NCBI GenBank assembly: GCA_963783255.1
Contig: CAWAMP010000022.1
Span: 566,761 to 630,760, forward strand
DNA length: 64,000 nt
Direction of reading: 5' to 3'
From: an uncultured Acidobacteriota bacterium
GTDB taxonomy: Bacteria; Acidobacteriota; Vicinamibacteria; Vicinamibacterales; Fen-181
Positions 40-63,314 of this stretch are shown in pieces. Each line of letters begins with the position of its first letter. Position 1 is the stretch's first letter. The translations under genes were made by a program, and so were the position numbers. The notes below the pieces were generated by a model. The model worked only from the letters and a program-made list of their open reading frames with translations, did not search any database and was not told the origin of the DNA.

Positions 40-127
40 GCAAGGTCCCACGTTCGCACGATCCCTGGTTCGCACGATCCGTGGTTCGCACGATCTCCAG
101 TTCGCAAGATCGCAAGATCGCAAGATA
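40..127 (+). repeat. 8-nt-period tandem array, locus A (11 phased octamers ending 13 nt before the symporter ATG)
   Basis: Read in one phase: GCAAGGTC CCACGTTC GCACGATC CCTGGTTC GCACGATC CGTGGTTC GCACGATC TCCAGTTC GCAAGATC GCAAGATC GCAAGATA. A weaker same-phase signal continues back to nt 1 at the window edge. Period 8 cannot be coding, although ORF 12..1634 runs through it. Confidence 0.85.
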
Positions 128-8561: not shown

Positions 8562-8562
8562 G

Positions 8563-8675
8563 GATCTTGCGACGTTGCGATCTTGCGAACTGGTTATCCC
8601 GCGAGCTGGGATCTCACGGAATGGAGGCTGGCCGAAGTCCTTCGCAAGATCTCGACTTCGCACGATCGCAAGGTG
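8563..8675. repeat. 8-nt-period array, locus B, arranged as two inverted arms between convergent genes
   Basis: Arm 1 is GATCTTGC GACGTTGC GATCTTGC GAACTGGT (8563-8594). Arm 2 is AGTCCTTC GCAAGATC TCGACTTC GCACGATC GCAAGGTG (8636-8675). GATCTTGCGA at 8563-8572 is the exact reverse complement of 8642-8651. Confidence 0.85.
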
Positions 8676-8690
8676 CCCGCTGGTGGCACC

Positions 8691-19459: not shown

Positions 19460-19508
19460 TCCGCTGCCGGCCATCCGCTGACAGCTAACAGCTGACCGCT
19501 GCCAGCCG
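19446..19508. repeat. weak 7-nt-period tract (NNNGCTG units) spanning two convergent stop codons
   Basis: Units read TCAGCGG ACCGTGA TCCGCTG CCGGCCA TCCGCTG ACAGCTA ACAGCTG ACCGCTG CCAGCCG. The hairpin CAGCGGA-CCGTGA-TCCGCTG (19447-19466) carries the hydrolase TGA in its loop. Confidence 0.4.
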
Positions 19509-31180: not shown

Positions 31181-31846
31181 ATGAAGAAGCTCGCAATCGG
31201 GTGTGCGATCGTGCTCGTGGTGCTGATCGTCGTCGGCGGCATCGCCGGATACTTCATTTGGTCGAAGGTGGGCGGATCCATTACGGGTATCACGAAGTTC
31301 ACGACCAGCATGCAGGCGGTGGCGGAGATCGAGAAGGAGGTGAAGAACACCTCGTCCTTCACGGCGCCGGAAAACGGGGAGCTGACCGAGGAGACGGTGT
31401 CCCGCTTCATGAAGGTGCAGGCACACATGCAGTCGAAGCTCGGCAAGCGGGTGGACGAATTCAAGGCCACCTACGACAAGCTCGACAAGACGCTGAAGGC
31501 GGAACAGCGAGATGCGTCGTTCACGGAGGCGATGGGCGCGCTCGGGGATCTGGCCGCGCTGATCACGGATGCGAAGAAAGCGCAGGTCGAAGGCCTGAAC
31601 CAGGCCGGCTTCTCCATGCGGGAGTACCAGTGGGTCCGTACCCAGGCCTACGCGGCAGTCGGGGTGCTCGCCGGCGGCTTCGACATGACGAAGTTCGCCG
31701 AGCAGATAAAGGCAGGCGACGCCGAAGGGCTGTCGAAGGCTGACGCGGAATCGCTGCCTGACGTCCCCGAGAAGAACAAGGCACTGGTCGCGCCCTACGA
31801 AAAGCAGCTCAAGGAGTGGGCGCCGCTGGCCTTCTTCGGCTTCTGA
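31181..31846 (+). CDS. hypothetical membrane-anchored helical protein
   Basis: AGGAGG precedes the ATG. It has an N-terminal TM helix (LAIGCAIVLVVLIVVGGIAGYFIW) followed by a Lys/Glu-rich helical body. Its stop overlaps the next ATG (TGATG). Confidence 0.55.
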   Translation: MKKLAIGCAIVLVVLIVVGGIAGYFIWSKVGGSITGITKFTTSMQAVAEIEKEVKNTSSFTAPENGELTEETVSRFMKVQAHMQSKLGKRVDEFKATYDKLDKTLKAEQRDASFTEAMGALGDLAALITDAKKAQVEGLNQAGFSMREYQWVRTQAYAAVGVLAGGFDMTKFAEQIKAGDAEGLSKADAESLPDVPEKNKALVAPYEKQLKEWAPLAFFGF

Positions 31847-32517
31847 TGCGGGGGGCCATTTTCGACCTCGACGGCACGATCGTGGACAACATGCCGGTCC
31901 ACGCCGATGCCTTCGCGATCTTCGTCGAGCGTCACGGGCTCCGCCCGCTGACGCTCGACGACCGCAGGCGGCTCGACGGCCGCCGCAACCGCGACATCTT
32001 CCCCGATCTTCTCGGGCGCGAGTTGACCGACGCCGAGCAGGAGGCCTTCGCGGACGAAAAGGAGGCGCTCTACCGGGAGCTGTCGGTCGGGCGCCTGGCG
32101 CCGGCCGCCGGTTTCGTCAGGTTGCTCGACAGCCTGGCGGCCAGCGGCATCCCGGTCGCGGTGGCCACCTCGGCCCCTCCCGACAACGTGAATCACACGC
32201 TCACCGAGCTCGGCCTGGCCTCGCGCCTGACGTCGGTCGTTCGAAGCGACCAGGTGCCGCGGGGCAAGCCGTTCCCGGACGTGTTCCTGGCGGCGGCCGA
32301 GCGGCTGGGGGTGCCGGCGGCTGACTGCGTGGCGTTCGAGGACGCGCCGATCGGCATCGTCGCGGCGCGGACAGCCGGCATGACGACGGTGGCCATCGGC
32401 AGCAGCTTCTCGGCGGACGTCTTCCTTGCCCCTGAAGTCGGGGCAGACGTCGTCGTGAAGGACTTCGAGGAGTACCTGGACGGACCGGGACGGTGGCTCA
32501 CGCGCCCGAAAATGTAG
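31846..32517 (+). CDS. HAD-superfamily hydrolase (beta-phosphoglucomutase-like subfamily IA)
   Basis: HAD motifs are FDLDGT (motif I), VATSA (motif II) and K...FEDAPIG (motifs III/IV). Confidence 0.85.
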   Translation: MRGAIFDLDGTIVDNMPVHADAFAIFVERHGLRPLTLDDRRRLDGRRNRDIFPDLLGRELTDAEQEAFADEKEALYRELSVGRLAPAAGFVRLLDSLAASGIPVAVATSAPPDNVNHTLTELGLASRLTSVVRSDQVPRGKPFPDVFLAAAERLGVPAADCVAFEDAPIGIVAARTAGMTTVAIGSSFSADVFLAPEVGADVVVKDFEEYLDGPGRWLTRPKM

Positions 32518-32607
32518 AACTGGGAATGTAGAATTGAGAAGGGAGCCTCCCTACTGCTCAGTTCCTGATTCCCAGTTCCCAATACTCAATACTCAATCTT
32601 CCAATTC
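32510..32607. repeat. 7-nt-period array, locus G (14 phased heptamers, dyad centred on GGGAG-C-CTCCC)
   Basis: Units read AAATGTA GAACTGG GAATGTA GAATTGA GAAGGGA GCCTCCC TACTGCT CAGTTCC TGATTCC CAGTTCC CAATACT CAATACT CAATCTT CCAATTC. They fill the spacer between convergent stops at 32517 and 32609. Confidence 0.8.
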
Positions 32608-32608
32608 C

Positions 32609-35862
<3,254 letters not shown>

Positions 35863-35866
<4 letters not shown>

Positions 35867-37284
35867 GACTCGCCTCCCCGCTCGCCGCGCTGGCCTCGCT
35901 GCCCGCCGCCCTCGGCGCCGGCACCGGGCCGGCCGCCGCCCGGCTGCCCGCCGCCTTGCGAGCCGCCCTGCCGTCCGCCCGGGCCGCGGCGGCCTCCGCC
36001 TTCCTCGCCCGTGCCAACCTGCACGCTCATGCCGGTCGCCAGCTCGTTGAGCCGGTTGTTCGCCAGCGTTTCGTCGCCCTTCAGCCCCTCCACGATCTCC
36101 CACAGGGGACCCTGACGAACGCCGAGCGTCACCTGCTGCTGCGTGATCCGGCCGTTCCTGATGACGTAGACCGACGAGACGCCGGCCAGGGTGGATACGG
36201 CGGTGTCGGGAACGGCCAGCACGCCTTCATCCTTGTTCGTGAGGATCACACCCTTGGCGAAGAACCCGGGCTTCAGCCGGCGGTCGGTGTTGTCCACCAG
36301 CGCCTCGACCGCAAACGTCCGCATCGTCTGATCCAGCGACGGACTCACGTAGGCCACCTTGCCGTGGAACAGCGTGTCGCCGTACGACTCCACACGAAAC
36401 TCGACCGGCTGCCCGGGCTGGATGAGGCCGGCGTGCTTCTCCTGCGCCCCCGTGCGCAGCTTCAACGGATTCACCTGGACGATGGTCGCGACCACGGTGC
36501 GCTCGCTGATGTACTCGCCAACCTGGACGGGACGTTCCGACACGATGCCGGAGATGGGAGCCCGCACCGTGGCGTCGTTGAGCTTCTTCACCGCCAGATC
36601 GTAGGACGCCCGGCGGTCCTGCAGCAACGCCTTCTGGCCGCGCATGGTGTCGGTGGCCGACTGGTGGGCGGCTTCGGCCACCTTCAGCCTCGTGTCGGCG
36701 GCCTGCAGGTCGGAGGGCGATACGATGCCCTTCCCGGCCAGCGTATGGATCCGGTCCGCGGTGGCTTTGGCGTCGAGGTAGGTCGCGTATGCGTTCTTGA
36801 CCGACGCGACCTCGTCGTCCGGCGGCGGGTTGTCGCCTTCTTCGAGCGGCCCATGCATTCCGAGCTGGGCCCGCGTCTGGCGCAGTGCGCTTTCCGCTCG
36901 GGCCAGCGCGAGCTGCAATTCCCTCGGCTCGAGCCTCACGAGCGGGGTGCCGACCTTCACCTCGGCGCCAATCTCGACCATCACGGCGCGCACCACGCCG
37001 GCCGCCTCGGCGCTCACCTTCGCCTGGTCGGGCGACAACAGCGTGCCGGCCAGGTCGACCATGCGCTGGACGCTCATCCGCTGAACCGTCGTGGAGCGGA
37101 CGCTCACCGCCGGGCCTCCCCGGCCGCCGCGAGCGCCGCCGCCGGCTCGGGCCCCAGAGGCCGCGCCGCCGCCCGAAGCCGGCGCGCCAGGCGCGGAACC
37201 GCCGCAGGCGGAAAGAACCACCGCCAGAAGTCCAGCCAGGACCGCCAGGCGCAAGGACACAGGTCGTTCGATGATCTGGGCCAT
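35863..37284 (-). CDS. RND periplasmic adaptor (membrane fusion protein) with Gly/Arg-rich termini
   Basis: The ATG at 37284 gives a lipoprotein-like N-terminus (LLAVVLSACGG). It has hairpin, lipoyl and beta-barrel regions (GTPLVRLEPRELQLALARAESAL). The C-terminal 50 aa are Gly/Arg/Gln rich. Confidence 0.85.
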
Positions 37285-37487: not shown

Positions 37488-37518
37488 GGGGCCCCTTGCG
37501 AAAAGGGGCCCCCTTTTT
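37488..37518 (+). terminator. orphan Rho-independent terminator-like hairpin in a divergent spacer
   Basis: GGGGCCCCTT-GCGAA-AAGGGGCCCC (perfect 10-bp stem) is followed by C and TTTTT. It lies 85 nt upstream of the DUF2339 ATG. No plus-strand gene lies upstream. Confidence 0.6.
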
Positions 37519-42552: not shown

Positions 42553-42596
42553 AGTGCGATGCCCTTCGTAGCAGTGGCCAGAATCGGAAGAAGTTC

Positions 42597-42699
42597 GATC
42601 TTGCGGTCTTGCGATCTTGCGAAGTACGCATGGGCTGCTGGACGCCCCCGACCGCGCGATTGCACGTCGCACGATCGCACAATCGTACTTCGCAAGATG
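42597..42699. repeat. 8-nt-period array, locus C, two inverted arms in the infA leader / 3' region of the RRM gene
   Basis: Arm 1 is GATCTTGC GGTCTTGC GATCTTGC GAAGTACG (42597-42628). Arm 2 is GCACGTC GCACGATC GCACAATC GTACTTC GCAAGATG (42662-42699). ATCTTGCGAAGTACG at 42614-42628 is the exact reverse complement of 42684-42698. Confidence 0.85.
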
Positions 42700-42709
42700 C
42701 GACTACGAA

Positions 42710-46309: not shown

Positions 46310-46349
46310 AATCTTGCGATCGTGCGAAGTGGCGAACTGGCGAACTGGC
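46310..46349 (-). repeat. 8-nt-period array, locus D (5 phased octamers)
   Basis: The plus strand reads AATCTTGC GATCGTGC GAAGTGGC GAACTGGC GAACTGGC. This is the same unit vocabulary as locus E. It lies 50 nt upstream of the FHA-GGDEF start. Confidence 0.85.
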
Positions 46350-46354
46350 GGCCG

Positions 46355-46418
46355 GCGACTGGCGGCTTGCGGCGGTGTCACGGGCGACAGCGTGACCCGG
46401 CCGCAAGCCGCCAGTCGC
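46355..46418 (-). terminator. long GC hairpin after the M28 peptidase gene
   Basis: GCGACTGGCGGCTTGCGGC (46355-46373) is the exact reverse complement of 46400-46418, a 19-bp stem. The 26-nt loop contains a further GTCACG/CGTGAC pair. It starts 7 nt after the stop at 46425. There is no U-tract. Confidence 0.75.
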
Positions 46419-46424
46419 GAGCCG

Positions 46425-53223: not shown

Positions 53224-53305
53224 GTCCGCAGTCATCCGTTCTGAGTTCGGAGTTCGGAGTTCTGAGTTCTGAGTTGTGAGTGGTGAGTGGTGAGGCGAGA
53301 GGAAC
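53222..53305 (+). repeat. 7-nt-period array, locus F (12 phased heptamers filling the whole spacer from stop to start codon)
   Basis: Units read GAGTCCG CAGTCAT CCGTTCT GAGTTCG GAGTTCG GAGTTCT GAGTTCT GAGTTGT GAGTGGT GAGTGGT GAGGCGA GAGGAAC, then AC-ATG (53308). Confidence 0.9.
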
Positions 53306-58133: not shown

Positions 58134-58157
58134 GAACGGGCTCCTTCTCACAAGGAT

Positions 58158-58241
58158 GGCTCCTGGCTCTTGGCTCTCGGCTCCCGGCTCTCGGCAGAGA
58201 GCCAGACGCGGCCTGAGGCCGAAGGTCGAGAGCCCAGAGCC
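58158..58241. repeat. 7-nt-period array, locus H (12 phased heptamers with inverted arms)
   Basis: Units read GGCTCCT GGCTCTT GGCTCTC GGCTCCC GGCTCTC GGCAGAG AGCCAGA CGCGGCC TGAGGCC GAAGGTC GAGAGCC CAGAGCC. There is a perfect hairpin, GGCTCTC-GGCA-GAGAGCC (58186-58203). Confidence 0.85.
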
Positions 58242-62745: not shown

Positions 62746-62777
62746 ATGATACCATGATTTCATGATATCATCATGAT
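62746..62777 (-). promoter_or_regulatory. AT-rich putative operator/promoter of the toxin-antitoxin pair
   Basis: This is the only AT-rich patch in the window. ATGAT occurs four times, starting at 62746, 62754, 62762 and 62773. The palindrome ATGATATCAT spans 62762-62771. It lies 7 nt upstream of the antitoxin ATG. Confidence 0.4.
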
Positions 62778-63160: not shown

Positions 63161-63206
63161 ATGCCCGGATCAACGTGCAAGGACGGGGCCGGGGGGAGAA
63201 TCCAGC

Positions 63207-63286
63207 GATCTTGCGATCTTGCGATCTTGCGATCTTGCGATCTGGCGAACTGGCGAACTGGCGAACTGGCAATCGTGCGAAGTTGC
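63207..63286 (-). repeat. 8-nt-period array, locus E (10 phased octamers, best copy)
   Basis: The plus strand reads GATCTTGC x4, GATCTGGC, GAACTGGC x3, AATCGTGC, GAAGTTGC with no phase slip. It lies 47 nt upstream of the yraN start and 29 nt downstream of the ribF stop. Confidence 0.95.
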
Positions 63287-63314
63287 GAACCGGGAGGGAG
63301 CGGTCCGTCGACGG

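Follow-up and report, generated by a model that had tools for sequence, protein, structure and literature searches.

The window, which is the whole stretch of DNA analysed here (64,000 nucleotides of an acidobacterial contig), contains a convergent pair of genes encoding a HAD-family phosphatase and an RND (AcrB-type) transporter. The HAD protein consists of 223 amino acids (P0001, 100% identical). The spacer between the two genes is 91 nt long and is filled with an array of heptamers, designated array G. The features at the locus are as follows.

31846..32517, + strand: HAD-family phosphatase gene (Pfam HAD_2, 6.3e-29)
32510..32544, + strand: left arm of array G, GAA-headed heptamers AAATGTA GAACTGG GAATGTA GAATTGA GAAGGGA
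32517..32578, both arms: dyad proper, an imperfect hairpin (11 + 8 + 5 bp) predicted by folding and shuffle z
32541..32551: palindrome GGGAG-C-CTCCC, which makes the hairpin apex and is richer in G+C
32559..32607, + strand: right arm of array G, heptamers CAGTTCC TGATTCC CAGTTCC CAATACT CAATACT CAATCTT CCAATTC
32579..32625, + strand: predicted unpaired, pyrimidine-rich tail of the HAD transcript, resembling a Rho-loading site (21 C and 2 G in 47 nt)
32609..36103, − strand: RND (AcrB-type) transporter gene (Pfam ACR_tran, 1.4e-257)

The positions of the two stop codons should be noted. The HAD stop codon TAG (32515-32517) is located within array G, and the final two HAD codons (ATG TAG) come from the first repeat units. 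The RND stop codon is seen as TCA on the + strand at 32609-32611, with one extra base (32608) after the last unit. Both positions agree with the preliminary description of this DNA, in which the former overlapped the array and the latter lay just beyond it. In the window and in the related genomes L001, L002, L025, and L205, the HAD C-terminus (...WLTRP(K/R/G)M*) falls inside a GAATGTA-G unit, and in L207 the protein ends with ...TRSGI* inside GAATCTA-G. The position of the RND stop codon is constant across all orthologues compared.

The letters quoted in the preliminary description for 32510-32607 are exact, and all 14 heptamer slices were reproduced. The lag-7 autocorrelation of the array is 0.54, compared with 0.25 ± 0.045 in 5000 dinucleotide shuffles, none of which scored as high even when the best of lags 2-15 was taken. 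The left arm gives 0.54 at lag 7 and 0.76 at lag 14, and the direct repeat D2 was also detected there. The right arm, in which the heptamers tailed with TTC or ACT are the reverse complements of the GAA units, gives 0.64 at lag 7. TRF alone reports only CAATACT x2.6 (32580-32597). Comparable lag-7 periodicity is found at only four loci in the 64 kb, and the GAA-N4 x4 pattern has seven matches (0.07 expected), four of them at array G and three in an array at 53.2 kb. Phased heptamers with dyad symmetry between the convergent HAD and RND genes are real. The periodicity exceeds that of shuffles, and the orthologues make the heptamer reading unambiguous. A continuous phase of 14 units is an overstatement, because GCCTCCC and TACTGCT constitute the apical stem and loop and are not repeat units. 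The spacer is also as AT-rich as had been claimed (45% G+C, against 67.7% in the flanks), and is one of the five stretches of the window where the G+C content over 60 nt drops below 50%.

The relationship of array G to an octamer family in the window, which had been proposed from a common GAACTGG core, is less clear. The core does occur in both, but this is weak evidence, as the 7-mer is common genome-wide: the window has 33 occurrences where 6.4 would be expected (about 5-fold), mostly inside genes, and the link to the octamers is therefore uninformative. GAACTGG is found on both arms only in the window genome's copy of array G. A search of the 64-kb window with GAAYTGRGAAT gave four matches (1.1 expected), three of them at array G, and a GAATTGA-type array is present at one locus in the window. 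The cyanobacterial HIP1 palindrome, GCGATCGC, is not enriched (12 matches, 9.1 expected). A G-quadruplex was rejected, as there are only two G3 tracts in 32500-32620 where at least four would be required, and so was a CRISPR, as the units of the array are contiguous and have no spacers between them. Rfam at gathering thresholds detects three tRNAs only in the window, and in an E-value search of 32400-32720 the gathering score of the best match is 60 but only 17.8 bits are reached, which represents generic hairpin similarity.

The arms of the dyad (32517-32541 and 32554-32578) are 25 nt each, 80% complementary, and 12 nt apart. The + strand RNA is predicted to form a hairpin of −32.6 kcal/mol (z −3.6 to −4.2), and none of the 200 shuffles folded as well. 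A DNA fold of the dyad gives a z of −3.3. The same helix is formed by the − strand RNA, with a z of only −1.4. Folding of both strands against shuffled controls thus upholds a stable structure on the + strand, with the palindrome GGGAG-C-CTCCC at its apex where the preliminary description had centred the array. The + strand z values of the window and three relatives are −4.2, and −6.0, −5.6, and −10.9, respectively, and the three relatives give similar values on the − strand. A stable, long, and imperfect hairpin is predicted in all six dyad-bearing genomes despite the turnover of the sequence. The apical sequence differs among the orthologues, most of which still pair at the apex into a short stem, made of GAGAAC/GTTCTC in the case of L001 and L205 and of GGGAG/CUCCC in that of L002. 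The tips in L025 and L207 show weak pairing only. In an arm-swap test of whether the arms have co-evolved within each lineage, the native combination gave −44.8 kcal/mol versus −38.1 kcal/mol. This advantage is weak and the native pairing is not consistently the best, so that the test demonstrates neither that pairing is selected nor that one arm corrects the other.

We compared 12 orthologous HAD/RND junctions from Vicinamibacteria-like MAGs. Several of these loci have fragmented, frameshift-like gene calls, and the unit counts given for the relatives may err slightly. The dyad is present in the window and five other genomes, with spacers of 91 nt in the window, 187 nt in L001, 85 nt in L002, 78 nt in L025, and, by our own count from the sequence, about 98 and 97 nt in L205 and L207, respectively. 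The number of units differs in each of them. In L001, the left arm is (GAATTGA)x6 and the right arm consists of a 21-nt super-unit repeated 3.4 times. Perfect recent runs in the relatives include this (GAATTGA)x6, the 21-nt unit x3.4 (98% match), and (ATTCTCA)x4.6 (100% match). The orthologues differ by whole units rather than by a fixed element that was inserted or excised. Repeated GGA is observed in the L002 and L025 versions. L206 retains the right arm only, the spacer in L204 is 4 nt, and the genes overlap in L003, so that two nested relatives are without the array. In the four outgroups (L005-L008), the stop codons overlap or nearly abut, in the latter case with only a short, array-free spacer. 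The dyad-bearing versions and the variants in L206, L204, and L003 are found among genomes that are 85-94% identical in HAD DNA.

In the HAD tree, L003, L204, and L206 are nested in the clade that carries the array, and L005-L008 are placed outside, a placement that calls for one gain and at least three whole or partial losses. The sequence comparison thus shows that array G arose once, at the base of a Vicinamibacteria-like subclade, between genes whose stop codons overlap or nearly abut in the outgroups. The same comparison shows that unit number and sequence have changed in every genome since the gain, with at least three whole or partial deletions. With repetition beyond chance, copy-number variation, and an intergenic location, array G has the properties of a heptanucleotide long SSR (LSSR).

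GAATTGA-type arrays occur at this junction and only one other in 627 kb of Vicinamibacteria-like DNA, in line with a local origin. Related structures are found elsewhere. In another organism, rpsC and rplP are separated by a dyad of the same GAATTGA-type unit. In the 64-kb window, the octamer TTGCGAWC occupies five or more junctions, but it does not occur in about 640 kb of DNA from relatives. An identical 18-mer of this octamer family is present at two loci, and an octamer dyad is situated between RRM and infA, genes that are contiguous in the relatives. Direct (GAATTGA)n arrays show an apparent 3:1 strand bias with respect to the flanking ORFs, a bias that is confounded because the unit makes stop codons on one strand only.

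Several known repeats resemble array G. REP, BIME, and REPIN elements and inverted pairs of DNA-uptake sequences form extragenic hairpins past the 3' ends of genes, are tolerated in operons, and are co-transcribed. Such REP-type hairpins can stabilize the upstream mRNA or terminate transcription. They are fixed motifs of 10-40 nt in hundreds of near-identical copies, and REP and REPIN are mobilized by RAYT transposases. Array G is similar to them in being an extragenic, hairpin-forming inverted repeat after a gene 3' end, but differs in that it is made of tandem 7-nt units of variable number. The many near-identical copies of one palindromic motif of 20-40 nt that mark REP/REPIN are not found for array G, judging from the GAAYTGRGAAT matches in the window and from 627 kb with no further GAATTGA dyads.

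The GGGAATC heptamers of Xanthomonas and the short tandemly repeated repetitive (STRR) hairpins of cyanobacteria come closest to array G. Xanthomonas has about 70 convergent inverted pairs per genome, located on average 28 nt past the upstream ORF and varying extensively in length between species (Rehm et al. 2015, PMC4692102). Here as there, heptanucleotides are repeated in tandem between genes, often as close convergent tracts whose opposite strand orientation allows a stem-loop (the 25-nt arms in array G). Both repeats lie near the upstream ORF's 3' end and show depletion between divergent genes, and both occupy the same gene pair in related species with wide variation in length and sequence. 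In contrast to the G-rich Xanthomonas unit, those of array G are A+T-rich (GAATTGA, GAATGTA, GAACTGG) and give no G-quadruplex, the host is acidobacterial, and GAATTGA is apparently no genome-wide family: in the DNA covered it is seen at one locus in the 64 kb and at two junctions in the 627 kb of relatives. A repeat of the Xanthomonas type would have a single unit family at more than 100 loci per genome. In cyanobacteria, the hairpin of a 7-bp STRR lies between hupS and hupL (PMC2670836), and roles in transcript stability, translational coupling, and pausing or termination have been proposed for STRRs (PMC2670836; PMC4679880). They share with array G the 7-bp tandem intergenic units able to fold into hairpins, including inside operons, but belong to another phylum, have other unit sequences, and are dispersed genome-wide, whereas array G is local.

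Heptamers are described as the commonest bacterial long SSRs and attributed to polymerase slippage (Mrazek 2007, as cited in PMC4679880). The LSSRs of 5-11 nt (Mrazek, Guo and Shah 2007) and array G have in common the heptamer periodicity, the intergenic location, and the fast change of copy number. The inverted-pair hairpin architecture and the anchoring at two stop codons, both features of array G, do not belong to the LSSR concept as outlined in that source. The paired sites of Geobacter metallireducens are likewise intergenic tandem short repeats on opposite strands, with three to five units of 7-9 nt per strand at a variable distance apart (Aklujkar et al. 2009, PMC2700814). They form multi-copy families (about 16-48 aligned copies), are read as regulator sites, and in some cases lie beside IS elements (PMC2700814). 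Array G differs from them as a single locus with much larger swings in copy number.

These observations lead us to regard array G as a known kind of bacterial repeat and not a new system. It is probably a lineage-specific, hypervariable inverted pair of heptanucleotide SSRs, grown by slippage and acting as a dispensable 3' hairpin or insulator rather than as a canonical intrinsic terminator. The architecture is (GAATTGA/GAATGTA/GAACTGG)n, a short G+C-richer apical stem-loop, and then (TCAATTC/CAGTTCC)n. Slipped-strand mispairing in a 7-nt (and 21-nt) register may have lengthened and shortened both arms of a small palindromic seed, with the first unit anchored by the HAD stop codon. For either incoming strand, GAATTGA-type units would supply TGA or TAG in each of the three frames, and the tract could therefore expand against two gene ends harmlessly. 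Once transcribed, the tract would give a 3' stem-loop on both convergent mRNAs, which might act as an exonuclease barrier or a pause site. In the HAD transcript, the stem-loop would be followed by the 47-nt unpaired, C-rich, and G-poor tail, which could load Rho. Its net role may be that of a dispensable insulator between two transcription units. All these effects at the RNA level are inferred.

Several observations sit uneasily with this explanation. Slippage alone leaves the adjacent complementary tract unexplained, and the seed palindrome is hypothetical. The − strand z of the window and the arm-swap advantage are both weak. Of the dyads among metagenomic (GAATTGA)n arrays, 19 begin with the GAATTGA arm and five with the TCAATTC arm, a difference explained only via the stop-codon argument. 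The octamer TTGCGAWC pattern is hard to obtain by independent local slippage; it hints at active dispersal, possibly touching array G, given GAACTGG on both arms. It is thus conceivable, though rather doubtful, that the arrays are written or spread by an active, genome-specific process and not by passive slippage, for which the octamer "dialect", the de novo arrays, often inverted pairs, at RRM-infA and rpsC-rplP, and the GAACTGG units on both arms can be cited. If so, Vicinamibacteria would have a new repeat-generating or repeat-dispersing mechanism, of which array G is one product, or, in an alternative form, an uptake-signal-like or terminator-like code of phased 7-8-mers.

The implied role of the hairpin as a terminator does not hold well. 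Array G shares with intrinsic terminators a stable stem-loop directly 3' of the stop codon, and could serve both convergent genes, but its stem is A/U-rich and bulged whereas theirs are compact and G+C-rich. No U-rich tract is found on the + strand directly 3' of the stem, where the sequence of the tail is CCAAUACUCAAUAC; on the − strand there is just a UUUU, located 5 nt past the stem. A scan for canonical terminators and promoters found none at the locus, with no terminator-like call in 32300-32800, and canonical terminator-like sites are at background level (20-40 kb). A selected, bidirectional, U-tract-independent intrinsic terminator, in which the hairpin stops RNA polymerase arriving from both genes and prevents antisense read-through, would account for the location exactly between two convergent stop codons, for the hairpin that persists in six of six dyad-bearing genomes with an apex that varies by lineage and still mostly makes a short stem, and for the mild depletion of tandem 7/8-mer arrays between divergent genes (5, about 9.6 expected). 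We nevertheless consider it unlikely. The array is dispensable in close relatives, as three nested ones are without all or half of it, and the outgroups have overlapping genes or short array-free spacers. Moreover, convergent pairs mostly lack room for a hairpin (25 of the 73 overlap or are ≤20 nt apart and leave no space), the GAATTGA-unit dyad between rpsC and rplP is inside the S10 ribosomal operon, the octamer dyad is inserted between RRM and infA, and the native arm pairing is not always the best. Similarly improbable as the main explanation is a Rho-dependent terminator, in which the pyrimidine-rich distal arm is a rut site of regularly spaced YC dinucleotides and the hairpin only marks and protects the processed 3' end. 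On the + strand, the 78-nt stretch 32548-32625 contains 33 C and 6 G, like a rut site (about 80 nt, C-rich and G-poor), and its C/G of 4.86 is essentially the maximum over both strands of the 64 kb (5.0). The predicted unpaired tail, the rarity of canonical terminators here, the retention of the right arm alone in L206, and a right arm at least as long as the left in most array-carrying genomes (our own unit counts) point the same way. However, the length excess of the right arm is not statistically significant, the C/G on the − strand does not exceed a modest 1.7, the stem takes up about half of the C-rich region, and the sense strand of other arrays in the window is rich in G (e.g., 53238-53294).

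The presence or absence of the array at a precise junction and its A+T content, far above that of the genome, would also suit a non-autonomous mobile element (MITE- or REPIN-like) inserted between the genes, with the heptamer tracts as terminal inverted repeats. (GAATTGA)n-loop-(TCAATTC)n dyads do appear at unrelated loci in many metagenomes, L116 and L002 have GAATGA(G/A)GAACTGAGGGG in common beside the loop at different loci, and the octamer family of the window genome behaves as dispersed. Against this, the interiors of the dyads are wholly different between loci, the sole candidate for a target-site duplication is CTCAC in both flanks, the GAATTGA unit is at just two junctions in the 627 kb, and the change by whole units is not that of a fixed element. 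In viral contigs, (GAATTGA)3 is found at 51 loci, against 39 and 10 for permutations of the same composition, and so is not markedly more frequent than a permutation; TAACTGA reaches 107, and GAATTGA as a universally favoured unit was rejected. We regard a mobile origin as improbable, and a MITE proper was rejected for its non-conserved interior and lack of a clear target-site duplication. An array of sites for a sequence-specific DNA- or RNA-binding protein, one per heptamer (a global regulator, a nucleoid protein, or one of the S1/Csp/CsrA type), is a distinctly improbable reading. Cooperative binding typically goes with a short motif at regular intervals, the repeated GGA mentioned above would fit, and there are precedents: the paired hepta-/octanucleotide sites of G. 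metallireducens are annotated as putative global-regulator sites (PMC2700814), and TAACTGA heptamers of Beggiatoaceae were proposed to provide post-transcriptional regulators with sites (PMC4679880). However, the sequence and number of units are not conserved in close relatives, in some of which the array is dispensable, unit families change by locus and by genome, and the strand is inconsistent with respect to transcription. The frameshift-like, fragmented gene calls in several related MAG loci might raise the suspicion that the array is an artefact, produced by assembly or sequencing where complexity is low. This is extremely improbable, as six independent assemblies have the array at this junction, many independent metagenome contigs contain identical-unit dyads, and both flanking ORFs terminate correctly within the array.

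The inverted SSR pair favoured here bears on the wider problem of how heptamer repeats originate and function, which also concerns Xanthomonas, cyanobacteria, Beggiatoaceae, and Geobacter. The HAD/RND junction provides, for a single gene pair, a natural series of overlapping ancestor, gain, 187-nt expansion, decay, half loss, and full deletion. The series can be used to measure the slippage and deletion dynamics of hairpin-forming repeats, and could test the insulation of convergent genes by hairpins in Acidobacteriota, a phylum seemingly poor in canonical terminators. In annotation work, it should be noted that the 3' ends of both genes are set by a repeat that shifts stop codons, and that long A+T-rich hairpins in high-G+C MAGs are not necessarily terminators, small RNAs, or mobile elements. 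We found no description of such repeats specific to Vicinamibacteria in the literature searched. At the other junction with a GAATTGA-type array, L002 has a spacer of 9 nt (GAATTGGAG), the place of which is taken by an array of 45 nt in L025 and by one of 100 nt in L001.

Array G, an inverted heptamer array, is located between two convergent genes, which encode a HAD-family phosphatase (+ strand) and an RND transporter (− strand).

31846-32517, + strand, HAD-family phosphatase gene (Pfam HAD_2, 6.3e-29)
32510-32607, array G
32609-36103, − strand, AcrB-type RND transporter gene (ACR_tran, 1.4e-257)

The sequence of array G quoted in the preliminary description and its fourteen 7-nt slices match the window exactly. 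As described there, the HAD stop codon (TAG, 32515-32517) lies within the first units. The RND stop codon (TCA on the + strand, 32609-32611) is separated from the last unit by one base. The AT-richness is also confirmed, since the 91-nt spacer has 45% G+C, compared with 67.7% in the flanking 2 kb; the G+C content of the window is 68%. The count of 14 units holds for the slices but not for repeats, because the apical stem, GGGAG-C-CTCCC, and its loop account for the two central "units". TRF on its own detects CAATACT ×2.6 and nothing further.

The periodicity of array G is more than chance. Its lag-7 autocorrelation is 0.54, compared with 0.25 ± 0.045 in 5000 dinucleotide shuffles, none of which is as high even when the best lag from 2 to 15 is taken for each shuffle. 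Equally strong lag-7 periodicity is found at only four places within the 64 kb, and four GAA triplets at 7-nt spacing occur seven times (0.07 expected), four of them at array G. The arms (32517-32541 and 32554-32578) show 80% complementarity over 25 nt. The proposed dyad folds as + strand RNA into an 11+8+5-bp hairpin (−32.6 kcal/mol, z −3.6 to −4.2), and as DNA with z = −3.3. The mirror helix is also obtained on the − strand, but its significance is weak (z −1.4) owing to the G-rich composition.

Homologues of the HAD protein are named Vicinamibacterales or Acidobacteria, and their genome records are Acidobacteriota or Vicinamibacteria MAGs. Among twelve orthologous convergent HAD-to-RND junctions, five possess an array G-type element, in which the heptamers are unmistakable.

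Spacers at the orthologous HAD-to-RND junctions (L numbers denote loci from other genomes or contigs), with z scores of the predicted hairpins
L001: 187-nt spacer; left arm GAATGTA ×2, GAATTGA ×6, GAATGTA, followed by apical stem GAGAAC-TGCCCC-GTTCTC; right arm of ~17 units of TCAATTC, CTAATTC or TCCATTC, including a 21-nt super-unit ×3.4 (98% match); z −10.9 (+), −8.6 (−)
L002: shorter variant, 85-nt spacer; z −6.0 (+), −5.7 (−)
L025: shorter variant, 78-nt spacer; z −5.6 (+), −5.4 (−)
L205, L207: shorter variants
L206: right arm alone, TAATTCTCAATTCTCAATTCCCAATTCC
L204: 4-nt spacer, CTTC
L003: zero spacer; last 12 HAD codons also missing
L005, L007, L008 (outgroups): stop codons overlap
L006 (outgroup): 26-nt spacer without array

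In L001, L002, L003, L206, and L207, RND and neighbouring genes are called in pieces (RND, for example, as 2-3 ORFs), suggesting frameshift errors in the MAGs; exact unit counts should therefore be taken with some caution. In a neighbour-joining tree of HAD DNA, the array-bearing clade includes L003, L206, and L204 but not L005-L008. The HAD DNA identity is 94% between L003 and L025 and 92% between L206 and L205. The CTTC of L204 looks like the last remnant of a right arm. In the simplest history, array G was gained once, its units kept changing in number and sequence, and it was deleted, wholly or in part, at least three times.

Long imperfect hairpins are predicted for all six dyad-bearing versions, and shuffle controls are strongly significant in all four versions to which they were applied. 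The apical stem varies by lineage, being GGGAG/CTCCC in the window, GGGAG/CUCCC inside GGGGAGAACUCUCCC in L002, and GAGAAC/GTTCTC in L001 and L205, while the tips pair weakly in L025 and L207. When arms are swapped among orthologues, the mean energy is −38.1 kcal/mol versus −44.8 kcal/mol for native pairs; the native pair is not consistently best, and lineage-specific compensatory evolution was not demonstrated by this test. The complementarity arises mainly because both arms draw on one unit family. The sole suggestive hint of compensatory arm evolution is GAACTGG-GAAT, which is present on both arms in the window and absent from every orthologue.

Only two junctions in 627 kb of related DNA have GAATTGA-type arrays, that of array G and one other (L001 5496-5589, L025 5509-5540, L002 about 5612), where a gene ending in ...CGCATGTAG is on one side and the next start codon on the other. 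There, a 9-nt spacer GAATTGGAG in L002 corresponds to 45 nt in L025 and 100 nt in L001, a series in three close relatives that shows an array growing from the seed GAATTGGAG. Perfect runs and the 21-nt super-unit indicate recent duplications. Slipped-strand mispairing would act on both arms of a small, hypothetical palindromic seed. Read outward from each gene, the arms begin at or right after the stop codon (HAD, GTAGAAT...; RND, TGA-GGAAT...), and every reading frame of GAATTGA-type units contains TGA or TAG, so that a GAATTGA-first tract can expand harmlessly against two gene ends. Among the matches listed, GAATTGA-first dyads outnumber the opposite orientation by 19 to 5. The unit is not intrinsically special, since (GAATTGA)3 occurs at 51 loci in viral contigs versus 39 and 10 for same-composition permutations. 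A MITE was rejected, as each locus has a different dyad interior and no target-site duplication could be seen.

Array G is unlikely to be an intrinsic terminator maintained by selection, judging from its tail, the background, gene spacing, dispensability, and operon context. The locus has no U-tract and no terminator-like call in the terminator scan, and canonical terminator-like sites in 20-40 kb number 11, against a background of 8.0 ± 2.5. Of 73 convergent pairs from 32 Vicinamibacteria-like loci, 25 either overlap or are separated by ≤20 nt; an intergenic hairpin is routinely dispensed with in these genomes, and array G itself is dispensable in close relatives. In a metagenome scan, about one-fifth of the (GAATTGA)3 arrays among the matches listed have an inverted (TCAATTC)n partner ≤250 nt away. 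One such dyad, (GAATTGA)4-loop-(TCAATTC)4, is located between rpsC and rplP on a metagenome contig with 61% G+C (L092 204-300), and an efficient terminator inside this ribosomal operon would be harmful. Further (GAATTGA)n dyads are found in tandem (L109, L143) and convergent (L116) contexts.

A role as a 3′ stem-loop at which polymerase pauses or exonucleases are blocked is plausible. C-rich, G-poor unpaired RNA typically marks a Rho loading site. After the hairpin, 47 nt of the HAD transcript are predicted to be unpaired, with 21 C and 2 G, and the C/G ratio of the 78-nt stretch 32548-32625 (4.86) is essentially the highest in the whole window. The tail may thus be a candidate Rho loading site, as a rival or complement to the stem-loop role.

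Of the canonical terminator-like sites in 20-40 kb, a single one is convincing, at 37488-37512 (+), GGGGCCCCTT-GCGAA-AAGGGGCCCC followed by CTTTTT. It is positioned just 5′ of the DUF2339 start, inside the 5′ end of a divergent membrane-fusion-protein ORF, and may be a leader or attenuator.

Array G is a hairpin of inverted heptanucleotide SSRs, hypervariable and dispensable; a canonical terminator, an Rfam RNA, and a recognisable mobile element were rejected. The pattern agrees with published descriptions. Heptamers are the dominant bacterial long SSR, and slippage is given as their origin (Mrazek 2007, as cited in PMC4679880). Xanthomonas has 186 GGGAATC arrays, including ~70 convergent inverted pairs, which are found on average 28 nt downstream of the preceding ORF, are under-represented between divergent genes, differ in length among species, and have no known function (PMC4692102). 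Cyanobacterial 7-bp STRR hairpins occur between hupS and hupL (PMC2670836), and paired tandem octa-/heptanucleotide sites on opposite strands occur in Geobacter (PMC2700814). Our literature search found no description of such repeats for Vicinamibacteria; array G extends this known, functionally unresolved class to a new phylum with a new unit.

Period-7/8 arrays reach 9.7 per 100 kb in Vicinamibacteria-like loci, about 3-fold the density in 52 loci of other phyla (3.0). By flanking ORFs, 26 are tandem, 12 convergent, and 5 divergent (background 158, 76, and 67). Inverted pairs with other units occur in the window at 8562-8690 and 42560-42709, and in further Vicinamibacteria-like MAGs and other acidobacterial ones at L008 20295-20560 (AACTGAAC with CCAGTTCC ×18), L053 9849-9957 and 17586-17675, and L035 20113-20219; the L053/L035 unit pairs are AATGCTG with TTCAGCA and AGTTTAA with CTTTAAA.

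The misfit with a passive slippage model concerns the octamers more than array G. TTGCGAWC/GCGAACTG octamers have 25 matches (1.8 expected) at five intergenic junctions of the window (85-123, 8567-8672, 42601-42681, 46313-46344, 63203-63289), and an identical 18-mer CTTGCGATCGTGCGAAGT is at 8655-8672(−) and 46313-46330(+). None of 413 fetched loci, which include about 640 kb of relatives, matches the exact two-unit pattern. Independent slippage from random seeds would not readily yield one unit at five loci in a single genome, and the family behaves like a dispersed REP-like or uptake-signal-like "dialect" instead. The 157-nt spacer between the RRM-protein gene and infA (42553-42709, − strand) holds an octamer dyad (hairpin z −3.5) and is an insertion; L001, L002, and L025 have nothing between these genes (TAG, then directly TTG), and L004 has a different, non-array spacer of ~140 nt.

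The longest array of the window, at 63205-63288 between two − strand genes, comprises 10.5 octamers, direct only: GCGATCTT ×4-5 grading into GCGAACTG ×3, then GTGCGAAG and TTGCGAAC. A very stable G+C-rich hairpin with a ~30-bp near-perfect stem (46353-46420; region z −5.2) lies directly behind the stop of a − strand gene, with octamer units coming next, a layout of hairpin and flanking array also seen at L004 13564 and L005 19151. An A+T-rich octamer array, ATGATACC ATGATTTC ATGATATC ATCATGATG (62746-62771), lies in one of the rare stretches with less than 50% G+C, close to two tRNA genes and the end of a − strand gene. Direct heptamers GAGTTCT/GAGTTCG ×6 grading into GAGTGGT ×3 (53238-53294), with no inverted partner, span the gap from a stop codon (53223) to the next start (about 53309). 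Other heptamer arrays, each with a private unit, are at 58157-58195 (GGCTCYY ×5) and at 19477-19506 (GCTGACA ×4), the latter in the 25-nt gap between two other convergent genes.
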